NCBI RefSeq assembly: GCF_055900595.2
Contig: NZ_CM148325.1
Direction: 5' to 3' (one strand)
Length of the DNA stretch: 64,000 nt
The stretch's first letter is position 1, and each line of letters starts with the position of its first letter. The notes beneath the pieces are model-generated. The model did no database searches, was not told where the DNA came from, and was given only the letters and a program-made list of their open reading frames with translations. Positions 42,973 through 44,004 of this stretch are shown in pieces. The translations under genes and the position numbers were made by a program.

Positions 42973-43243
42973 ATCACGAAATACCACTCTTTCTACAGTC
43001 TATGCCTTTATTTTCTTTTATTAGGGAAGATTTTAATTTTATTTTATCAACTTGTTAATCATTACACCTCTATTTATATTTTCCCCCACTCCCCATTCTC
43101 CCTGACAATTTTTTTGTGGAACAAAGTGTTATTTAAGAAACAAGCAAATCATTCTGTCTCTTTAGACAAATTTTGACATCAAACATGATCTTTTTCGCTA
43201 TATGTGTAAATATATTTTGGTTTTAATTATCAGGATATGACTT

Positions 43244-44004
43244 ATGTCACTAACCAGACGGAGGTTTACACAGATTCTTGCGTCGACATTGTTCCTGCAT
43301 CATCTGCCGTCCTTTGCACAATCAGTCAAATTCTGGGCCTCACTGACGCTTCCCGAAGCCCAAAACATTACACGCATCGTCTGGGGGCAGTCGAAGTTTC
43401 CAAAGGGTATTCTTCGCTGCTTCAGGGGCCTAATCAAATGGGCGGAGCCATTAATATCCCCCCAGAAGCCAACGAAATCTCTGGAAGCAAGTCTGGGATA
43501 TCGCCAGGGATGGAGCCGTAGCCAGGACAATGCCTACGATATGCATGCTTCTCGCACAATATTGATGCCGATACCATTCAAAATCAGAACAGCGGCACGG
43601 TGGATTACAGCGGTCTGGATGCCGGTATTAAGGGGAAAATCAGCAATATACTGGATGTAGGATTGAGCTACGCCCTGATCCACGCTGACGCCAAACGCAA
43701 AGACATCGGCAAGATAACCGATCTGCCAACGCAGACAATGACCGCATGGATGACTCTCAAACCGTGGGAGCCGTTAAGCGTAACGCTGTCGGAAGAGGCG
43801 CGTTCCTCCAGCTACAGCAACAGTGACGGTTCACAAAAAGCCGCCGGTTTTGCGGTGACCCACATTCGAGCCGATTACACCTTAGGTCATGGCTTCAGCG
43901 TTAATGCGTCGGTCAATAACCTGTTTGATACCAAATATGCCTACAGTGAAGGGTTTATTGAAGAAGGTCGCAATTTCTGGGCAGGTGTCGAATATACGTT
44001 CTGA
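43244..44004 (+). pseudogene. Degenerate TonB-dependent outer-membrane receptor remnant (frameshifted, internally deleted)
   Basis: Three frames carry fragments: a signal-like N-terminus (MSLTRRRFTQILASTLFLHHLPSFAQS), a plug-like motif (VEVSKGYSSLLQGPNQMGGAINI) and a C-terminal barrel segment ending ...NLFDTKYAYSEGFIEEGRNFWAGVEYTF. Total about 770 bp against about 2 kb expected. Confidence 0.5.

Follow-up and report, generated by a model that had tools for sequence, protein, structure and literature searches.

Between the periplasmic trehalase gene treA and ymgE, the stretch of DNA analyzed here (the window; 64,000 nucleotides of contig NZ_CM148325.1, assembly GCF_055900595.2) has an interval of 1139 bp that holds several short open reading frames (ORFs) and raises the question of what it once encoded and whether it still does anything. 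A sequence-only reading had found in it the decayed gene of a TonB-dependent outer-membrane receptor (TBDR), frameshifted and with most of its barrel lost, and alignment to intact loci and tblastn searches bear out that decay. The loss is nonetheless much larger than the remnant of one gene that was supposed: a whole six-gene operon of 6427 bp has been reduced to 761 bp, or 12% of its length. We conclude that positions 43244-44004 are very probably a non-functional deletion remnant of this operon, which is ancestral between treA and ymgE in the Enterobacteriaceae.

The intact state of the locus is seen in the E. coli strain EcPF18 (locus L002), where the treA-ymgE interval contains six co-oriented genes. 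In order, these encode an iron-type ABC substrate-binding protein (SBP, 340 aa), a FecCD-type permease, an ATPase, a class I SAM methyltransferase, ModD and the TBDR (656 aa); the same six genes are annotated in PE164 and in O157:H7 Z910. This operon is the published prrA-modD-yc73-fepC cluster, O-island 55 / S-loop 83. In O157:H7 it corresponds to ECs1693-ECs1699 and was 'proposed to be involved in iron uptake' (PMC1890555), while in APEC BEN2908 it is GR9, a region of 6382 bp with the limits ymgE..treA, 'possibly mediating iron uptake' (PMC12928451). The first naming is credited in PMC1890555 and PMC12928451 to Guyer et al. (1998) and Ye & Xu (2001); the 'iron uptake' label is a proposal in the two citing papers, which contain no functional tests. 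Our search of the literature on the cluster, on ycgY and on modD together with TonB found nothing beyond the two papers that give the cluster its name. The window shares the location of the cluster, treA..ymgE, and not its set of six genes: what it retains, at about 98% nucleotide identity over 43244-44004, derives from the first gene (SBP) and the last (the receptor, prrA), both truncated and frameshifted, and the four genes between them are wholly gone.

The identity of the retained pieces was established by tblastn of the EcPF18 proteins against the whole window (Table 1). The search with an intact receptor, which the earlier reading had itself suggested, returned the expected protein: residues 504-656 align to 43543-44001 with 98% identity over 153 residues (E 8e-83), and residues 114-142 and 142-174 align to 43372-43458 and 43454-43552 (E 7e-25). 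The plug-like and C-terminal barrel pieces with an aromatic end that had been described are therefore present and derived from a receptor; the latter is the last part of the beta-barrel, keeps the C-terminal end ...AGVEYTF with its terminal phenylalanine, and the 134-aa ORF within it matches the NCBIfam TonB-receptor models. The signal-like N-terminus that had been assigned to the receptor belongs to another protein. SBP residues 1-46 align to 43244-43381 with 98% identity (E 9e-23), and this fragment comprises a twin-arginine-type signal peptide, MSLTRRRFTQILASTLFLHHLPSFAQS, beginning at the ATG at 43244, followed by the first residues of the mature protein. The leader of the receptor itself, MRLKKRYLCTALSLAFTQQA (MRLKKRYLC...), is missing from the window, its codons 1-116 (nt 1-349) having been deleted. 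No tblastn match to the permease, the ATPase, the methyltransferase or modD was found anywhere in the window.

Table 1. Positions in the window of the operon remnant, its control region, its flanking genes, and the blocks and junctions that define it.
Feature	Position	Strand	Basis or content
treA, periplasmic trehalase, upstream flank	41217..42914	+	tblastn, 97% over 565 aa; annotated treA in L001 and EcPF18
Native treA-SBP intergenic/control region, AT-rich (30% GC)	42915..43243	+	collinear with intact loci, no gaps against EcPF18
TTGACA, -35-like, 17 nt before left arm of operator	43173..43178	+	cross-genus alignment; putative function
Degraded ModE-type operator, CGCTATATG-tgtaaa-TATATTTTG	43196..43219	+	15/20 against published consensus
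ORF, 94 aa	43237-43521		
ORF, 138 aa	43244-43660		SBP leader, then receptor DNA partly out of frame
SBP fragment, codons 1-46 of 340	43244..43381	+	blastn against EcPF18 (L002) 3196-3333; tblastn; PGAP pseudogene
TBDR fragment 1, nt 350-521, codons 117-174, plug end and linker	43382..43551	+	blastn against EcPF18 8001-8172
TBDR fragment 2, nt 1519-1971, codons 507-656 and stop	43552..44004	+	tblastn; NCBIfam; PGAP pseudogene
ORF, 134 aa	43600-44004		starts at internal GTG; no leader
Hairpin, 9-bp stem (GCGGATAGC / GCTATCCGC)	44012..44041	.	RNA fold; between convergent receptor gene and ymgE
ymgE, downstream flank	44054..44308	-	tblastn, 100% over 84 aa
Block 1, equals EcPF18 2752-3333	42800-43381		treA 3' end, 329-bp intergenic region, first 138 nt of SBP
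Block 2, equals EcPF18 8001-8172	43382-43551		receptor nt 350-521
Block 3, equals EcPF18 9168-10013	43550-44395		receptor nt 1517-1971, spacer, ymgE
Deletion 1 junction	43381..43382	+	EcPF18 3334-8000 absent, 4667 bp
Deletion 2 junction	43550..43551	+	997 bp of barrel lost; 2-nt 'TC' microhomology

Three collinear blastn blocks between the window and EcPF18 define the junctions, and this comparison with an intact locus, likewise foreseen by the earlier reading, gives both deletion endpoints exactly. The first deletion is blunt, with no microhomology, and joins SBP codon 46 to TBDR codon 117; with it went the remainder of the SBP gene, the genes for the permease, the ATPase and the methyltransferase, modD, and the first 349 nt of the receptor gene. 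The second lies within the barrel. Between 43457 and 43458 a further deletion of 2 bp shifts the frame in the plug-linker segment, and the lengths close exactly (4667 + 997 + 2 = 5666 = 6805 - 1139). Frameshift decay had thus been rightly suspected in so far as this 2-bp lesion is real, while the main lesions are two large deletions rather than scattered frameshifts. The remnant has two reading frames and not the three overlapping ones reported, as 43237, 43384 and 43600 share one frame and 43244 lies in the other. Together the 2-bp and 997-bp deletions remove 999 bp, so that the C-terminal piece returns to the reading frame used by the first plug piece; one stop codon (43519-43521) lies between the two. 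The ATG at 43237, from which the remnant had been taken to start, arose by a substitution peculiar to the remnant allele; intact alleles have ATT or ATA at this position.

These data also bear on the possibility that a single TBDR gene, with its own signal peptide, plug piece and C-terminus, decayed in place by frameshifts and loss of the barrel. The plug and barrel pieces do come from a receptor, and the N-terminal peptide does resemble a signal peptide; however, the first 46 codons share 98% identity with the 5' end of the SBP gene, which lies 4.4 kb upstream of the receptor gene in intact loci, the receptor leader is missing, and the same deletion also struck five other genes. Alignment to the intact loci contradicts this account of the locus, which we consider very unlikely. 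In the preferred reading, loss of an operon by deletion, three lesions produced the remnant: the blunt loss of 4667 bp between codon 46 of the SBP gene and codon 117 of the receptor gene, the 2-bp deletion in the plug-linker segment, and the 997-bp deletion within the barrel at a 2-nt microhomology.

A functional TBDR has a signal peptide, a TonB box, a complete plug and a 22-strand beta-barrel that ends in an aromatic residue. The signal peptide and TonB box of the receptor in the window went with codons 1-116. Its plug (PF07715), which spans residues 39-139 of the intact protein, is represented by residues 118-139, or about 22 of roughly 100, after which the 2-bp frameshift intervenes. The barrel model (PF00593) covers residues 223-630 of the intact protein, and of that protein's C-terminal part the remnant has only residues 507-656; about 150 C-terminal barrel residues are left and about two thirds of the barrel is gone. 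As there is no permease, no ATPase and no ModD, and the receptor has neither signal peptide nor TonB box and is split over two frames, the remnant cannot make a transporter. It aligns collinearly with its intact orthologue between the same flanks, treA and ymgE, as a prrA pseudogene should, and nothing in our data contradicts its reading as a remnant.

The distribution of the allele was assessed by megablast of 42915-44060 against 5426 complete E. coli genomes, a set to which the window's genome does not belong. The whole query was matched in only eight of them (0.15%), while in many others it matched as two pieces spanning about 1.68 kb. All eight finished chromosomes share both junctions and the 2-bp deletion, and in them PGAP annotates two pseudogenes, of which the SBP piece in the locus L001 is named as an 'iron ABC transporter substrate-binding protein' pseudogene. 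The remnant of L001 differs from that of the window by 1 nt in 761. Among public assemblies, a contig of GCA_029451115.1 matches the window over 9698 nt at 100% identity, and the exact TreA protein of the window occurs in 113 blocks of the public-assembly index. This distribution leaves a probability close to nil that the structure is an assembly artefact made of collapsed or chimeric contigs. Nothing specific speaks for an artefact, apart from the draft status of the matching public contigs; the identical junctions recur in eight independently finished chromosomes, from India, South Korea and elsewhere, and in at least 25 contigs with the same TreA protein, and there are no collapse-prone repeats at the junctions. 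From the eight finished chromosomes and the 100%-identical public contig we therefore regard such an error as excluded.

The best identities of the window, 98.1% over 1-25000 and 99.2% over 36000-43200, are both to the same group of eight genomes. Compared over 50 kb with one genome of this group, E500002, the window is a mosaic, in which long tracts with 0-2 differences per kb alternate with patches that are 1-8% divergent, and the remnant sits in a tract of clonal-frame identity. In segment 43114-46044 the window and the eight genomes show hardly any differences, and patches nearby differ by 2-8%. We considered whether the deletion allele had been spread by recombination and rejected this idea, as equally identical long tracts recur over the 50 kb, the pattern of a clonal frame with imported patches. 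The simplest reading of these comparisons is a single origin followed by vertical inheritance: the allele would have been born once and passed down in a rare E. coli lineage.

The ancestral state of the locus was addressed with a scan for the receptor protein in one genome per species, which yielded 20 loci, whose flanks and operon proteins were identified by tblastn. E. albertii and two Citrobacter-type loci have treA, the six genes and ymgE-ycgR-emtA, with the qualifications that treA was not detected by tblastn in Citrobacter braakii and that the operon copy of C. koseri is partly decayed. Enterobacter, Klebsiella and Raoultella have treA, the operon and emtA, although in one Klebsiella MAG modD was not detected by tblastn. 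Receptor identity falls with phylogenetic distance (94%, 85%, 77%, 75%), and the operon lies in other contexts in Serratia, Erwinia, Pantoea, Affinibrenneria and Shewanella. Because the same site is occupied in E. albertii, Citrobacter, Enterobacter, Klebsiella and Raoultella, we infer that the operon is ancestral at the treA site, that the short forms are derived, and that it has been lost repeatedly. The window thus holds a relic of an uptake system, as had been proposed; the 'accessory' part of that proposal does not hold if it means a foreign island, since the operon is ancestral at this site in several genera.

Among the 5426 E. coli genomes, the internal 4.65 kb of the operon is present in 2139-2141 (39%) and a 622-bp ycgY segment of the K-12 type in 3171-3179 (58%). 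In K-12, homology to the intact locus ends at the treA stop codon and is regained only 24 nt ahead of the stop codon of the receptor gene (...AGVEYTF*); in between, 6731 bp have given way to a 622-bp segment of unrelated DNA that carries ycgY. The K-12 allele is likewise derived and without the operon, except for the final 24 nt of prrA, and has retained the hairpin adjoining ymgE; unlike the window, which keeps the promoter region and 761 bp of the operon and has no ycgY, it carries ycgY on the opposite strand and has had the promoter region replaced as well. The K-12 loss is independent of that in the window, and the K-12 orphan gene ycgY can now be placed in the DNA that replaced the operon and left a 24-nt prrA scar. 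Other states of decay were also seen: O157 Z910 has an internal stop in the methyltransferase gene, one E. coli genome matches only the last 11% of the operon query, at the modD-receptor end, and ECs1691-1705 are missing from O157 lineage II (PMC1890555). The prrA cluster, which has been described as an 'O-island' and as 'pathogenicity-associated', is ancestral at the treA-ymgE site, and its losses in K-12-type genomes, in the window type, in O157 lineage II and in the other partly decayed forms are separate cases.

It remains to be asked whether the short ORFs might be the functional native state of the locus, such that the 138-aa protein with a Tat leader or the 134-aa barrel-end protein is a new, selected small gene. 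Both ORFs are open, the promoter -35 element and the Shine-Dalgarno sequence are intact, gene callers predicted both in one public assembly, and the allele shows almost no variation among the window and the eight genomes. This near-invariance is not evidence of constraint, because it equals the clonal-frame level of the neighboring 10 kb. Past codon 46, however, the 138-aa ORF runs through receptor DNA, in part in the wrong frame, and the 134-aa ORF opens with an internal GTG and encodes no signal peptide, so that its product cannot reach the outer membrane. PGAP calls both pseudogenes, and the full operon is present in outgroups and in 39% of E. coli, with no other lineage having these ORFs as such. 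The fragments accordingly match the proteins expected of them, no short intact gene is conserved here as the native form, and a selected small gene appears highly improbable. The 138-aa and 134-aa ORFs are by-products of the deletions, with no sign of selection for either. As the -35 element and the left operator arm are intact and both ORFs are open, the remnant may still give rise to junk transcripts, or even junk peptides.

The AT-rich, promoter-like region that had been noted upstream (42975-43240; 28.9% GC, against 50.3% for the window) is the native control region of the lost operon. In most of 18 aligned loci, a hexamer TTGACA, TTGATC or TTGACT lies 17-18 nt before the operator described below; the genera are Escherichia, Citrobacter, Enterobacter, Klebsiella, Raoultella, Serratia, Erwinia and Pantoea, and no such -35-like hexamer is evident at this spacing in Affinibrenneria or Shewanella. 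The promoter was located by cross-genus conservation only; a simple scan for sigma-70 promoters and terminators gave no more sites than shuffled sequence.

In intact alleles the control region contains a 24-bp palindrome, CGnTATATA-N6-TATATAGCG (CGnTATATA-N6-TATATAnCG), which ends about 24 nt before the SBP start codon. It resembles the published ModE consensus of E. coli, ATCGNTATATA-N6-TATATANCGAT (PMC545781), and is found in 19 of 21 loci, from Escherichia to Shewanella, at about -48 (about -43 to -58 nt) from the SBP start. The operators of intact loci from more than 10 genera score 17-20 of 20 against the consensus, that of Raoultella ornithinolytica being perfect; by the same scoring, the experimentally established K-12 operators of modA and moaA reach 16/20. 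In simulations the frequency with which random 24-mers matched 16 of the 18 fixed positions was below 5e-7, and no other site in the rest of the 64-kb window exceeds 12/18. The operator of the parent operon is thus conserved across species near the promoter, as a member of the ModE regulon would be, and ModE is predicted to bind it. With the -35-like hexamer 17-18 nt upstream of its left arm, the operator would overlap the -10 region, which is the geometry of a repressor site. The K-12 modABC operon shows the same architecture, with the modA site at -45 from the ATG against -48 here and an operator that overlaps the likely -10 region in both. The two differ in that K-12 modABC encodes a type I ModBC transporter, whereas the parent operon encodes a type II, BtuC/MolB-like one together with an outer-membrane receptor, and in that ModE binding at the parent operon is a prediction.

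The copy of this operator in the window is damaged. Its left arm is intact and its right arm has changed from TATATAGCG to TATATTTTG, with loss of GCG, a change that L001 shares and that is consistent with relaxed constraint after gene loss; the control region is decaying as well, in that the right half of the operator is mutated. Other modes of control were considered. For the Fur box (GATAATGATAATCATTATC) no convincing site was found in the window or in eight intact loci, the best score being 13/19, which is at the level of background: it is attained by the window and by the intact E. coli and E. albertii alleles, other genera score lower, and 25 positions in the window reach at least 13/19 by chance. 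Control of the operon by iron and Fur is therefore not supported. A cobalamin riboswitch had been a candidate since the permease is BtuC-like, and was dropped when an Rfam search of 42700-44500 at a permissive E-value found no riboswitch or sRNA.

The proteins of the intact operon offer further indications of its substrate. Only ModD exceeds its curated NCBIfam cut-off among the six (502 bits against 179). The best NCBIfam families of the receptor are generic siderophore/heme TonB subfamilies, all below their cut-offs, and as its matches in a PDB sequence search are weak and confined to the plug region, they give no clue to the substrate. Among solved proteins, H. influenzae HI1471 (MolB) is the best relative of the permease and its top PDB match (E 9e-65); for the ATPase, a generic P-glycoprotein domain (1e-37) comes just ahead of HI1470 (9e-36); and the SBP is weakly similar to MolA (E 1e-7, a partial match of about 75 residues), its best match being 4pag. 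PMC3928620 and PMC7759655 describe the H. influenzae molABC-modD locus (HI1470-HI1473) as a secondary, low-affinity molybdate transporter, and cite Tirado-Lee (2011) for MolBC-A as a low-affinity type II ABC importer of molybdate and tungstate. The parent operon resembles that locus in having modD adjacent and in its permease and ATPase, and the molybdate link fits the ModE operator; it differs in the addition of a TBDR and a SAM methyltransferase and in the weakness of the SBP-MolA similarity, and none of the ABC genes survives intact in the window.

The permease, ATPase, SBP and ModD matches would thus point the same way as the ModE operator. We suggest, as a reading for which the chances seem even, that the parent operon is a ModE-repressed, TonB-dependent system for the acquisition of molybdenum (or tungsten), and not of iron. 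In this model ModE-molybdate would repress the intact operon through the operator over the -10 region, and it is this inferred repression that favors molybdenum or tungsten over iron; the outer-membrane gate would feed a MolBC-like importer, accompanied by ModD and the methyltransferase. Against the model stand the NCBI annotation and the literature, which call the system 'iron', the weak match of the SBP to MolA, and the siderophore/heme families of the receptor, albeit below cut-off. We found no report of a conserved ModE-type operator on the prrA operon in the searchable literature; an earlier prediction of the site may exist elsewhere.

The remnant itself is an ordinary pseudogene derived from a published cluster, and PGAP already marks it as such in sister genomes; its main uses are as a marker of its lineage and as a clear-cut case of an operon lost through two deletions. 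The conserved ModE-type operator is the only result here of possible wider interest. With it, the existence of a TonB-dependent route for molybdenum or tungsten in enterobacteria would become directly testable and, if the model is true, the long-standing 'iron' label would be corrected; the window would in that case document one among several independent losses, with an operator that decays after the genes it served are gone.

A Shigella origin was considered for the window and set aside, since the window is collinear with K-12 and no IS elements were seen; with best identities of 98.1-99.2% to any complete E. coli genome, it is best described as belonging to a divergent lineage of the E. coli group. 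The hairpin downstream of the receptor gene, retained in K-12 too, folds at -22.6 kcal/mol on the minus strand and is probably the terminator of ymgE.

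The ATG at window positions 43237-43239, which opens a 94-aa ORF and forms the left edge of the interval that the sequence-only reading described as a decayed TonB-dependent receptor gene, is found only in the remnant allele left by deletion of the six-gene operon between treA and ymgE; intact E. coli alleles carry ATT or ATA at this position. Substitutions specific to the remnant are concentrated around the 2-bp deletion in the 170-bp plug piece of the receptor (43382-43551), where about four changes are absent from all five of the intact alleles compared, against none in the 453-bp C-terminal piece. 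The clustering may be due to chance, to locally raised mutation or to import of a short stretch of DNA.

In K-12 MG1655 a 622-bp segment with the orphan gene ycgY has taken the place of 6731 bp of ancestral operon DNA between treA and ymgE. What remains as a scar is the 3' end of the receptor gene, 24 nt long and encoding AGVEYTF plus the stop codon, together with the hairpin adjoining ymgE; in some strains an IS1 element is inserted within or next to ycgY. Decay of the operon is also seen in other genomes. The methyltransferase gene of O157:H7 Z910 has an internal stop, although the operon looks intact, and among its neighbors treA is frameshifted and ycgR is cut by an IS3-family element. The operon at the treA-ymgE site of Citrobacter koseri NCTC10786 appears to be partly decayed: the substrate-binding protein (SBP) and ATPase match only in part, as does treA, and no permease was detected at the site; the predicted ModE-type site is retained, with a score of 16/18.

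In a metagenome-assembled genome labelled Collinsella sp., the ATPase, methyltransferase, modD and receptor sequences on a 3.2-kb contig share 98-100% identity with those of E. coli; the contig is almost certainly an E. coli one misbinned into an actinobacterial genome. Affinibrenneria salicis has two whole-operon copies (L015 and L018) on one scaffold, approximately 770 kb apart, with the same tblastn coordinates and identities; the operon was either duplicated recently or duplicated in the assembly.

Comparison of window positions 1-50000 with E. coli E500002, a genome with the remnant allele, revealed strongly mosaic divergence: some tracts, such as 29-40 kb, show 0-2 differences per kb, and between such tracts lie patches that diverge by 3-8%, such as those at 2-3 kb, 19-21 kb and 46-49 kb. 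This alternation indicates many recombination imports over a clonal frame common to the window and E500002.

Two other features of the window were located (see table). The tandem repeat units between chaA and kdsA correspond to repeats that the E500002 annotation assigns to the Ldr type I toxin-antitoxin system. The 470-aa ORF has no counterpart at the cvrA-dadX site of K-12, and a gene annotated 'hypothetical protein' occupies its position in both E500002 and PE164, a genome with an intact-type locus. Residues 147-349 of the ORF resemble the leucine-rich-repeat part of the models for the Salmonella T3SS effectors SlrP (E 9e-25) and SspH2 (E 1.5e-18), with both scores far under the family cut-offs; a PADLOC search of the ORF returned no match.

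Coordinates of the repeat units, the 470-aa ORF and its flanking genes
Feature	Window position	Strand	Remarks
Two tandem repeat units	18406-19417		~475 bp each, ~95% identical; between chaA and kdsA
cvrA	46965-48701		gene on one side of the 470-aa ORF
470-aa ORF	49388-50800	+	between cvrA and dadX
dadX	50968-52038	-	gene on the other side of the 470-aa ORF
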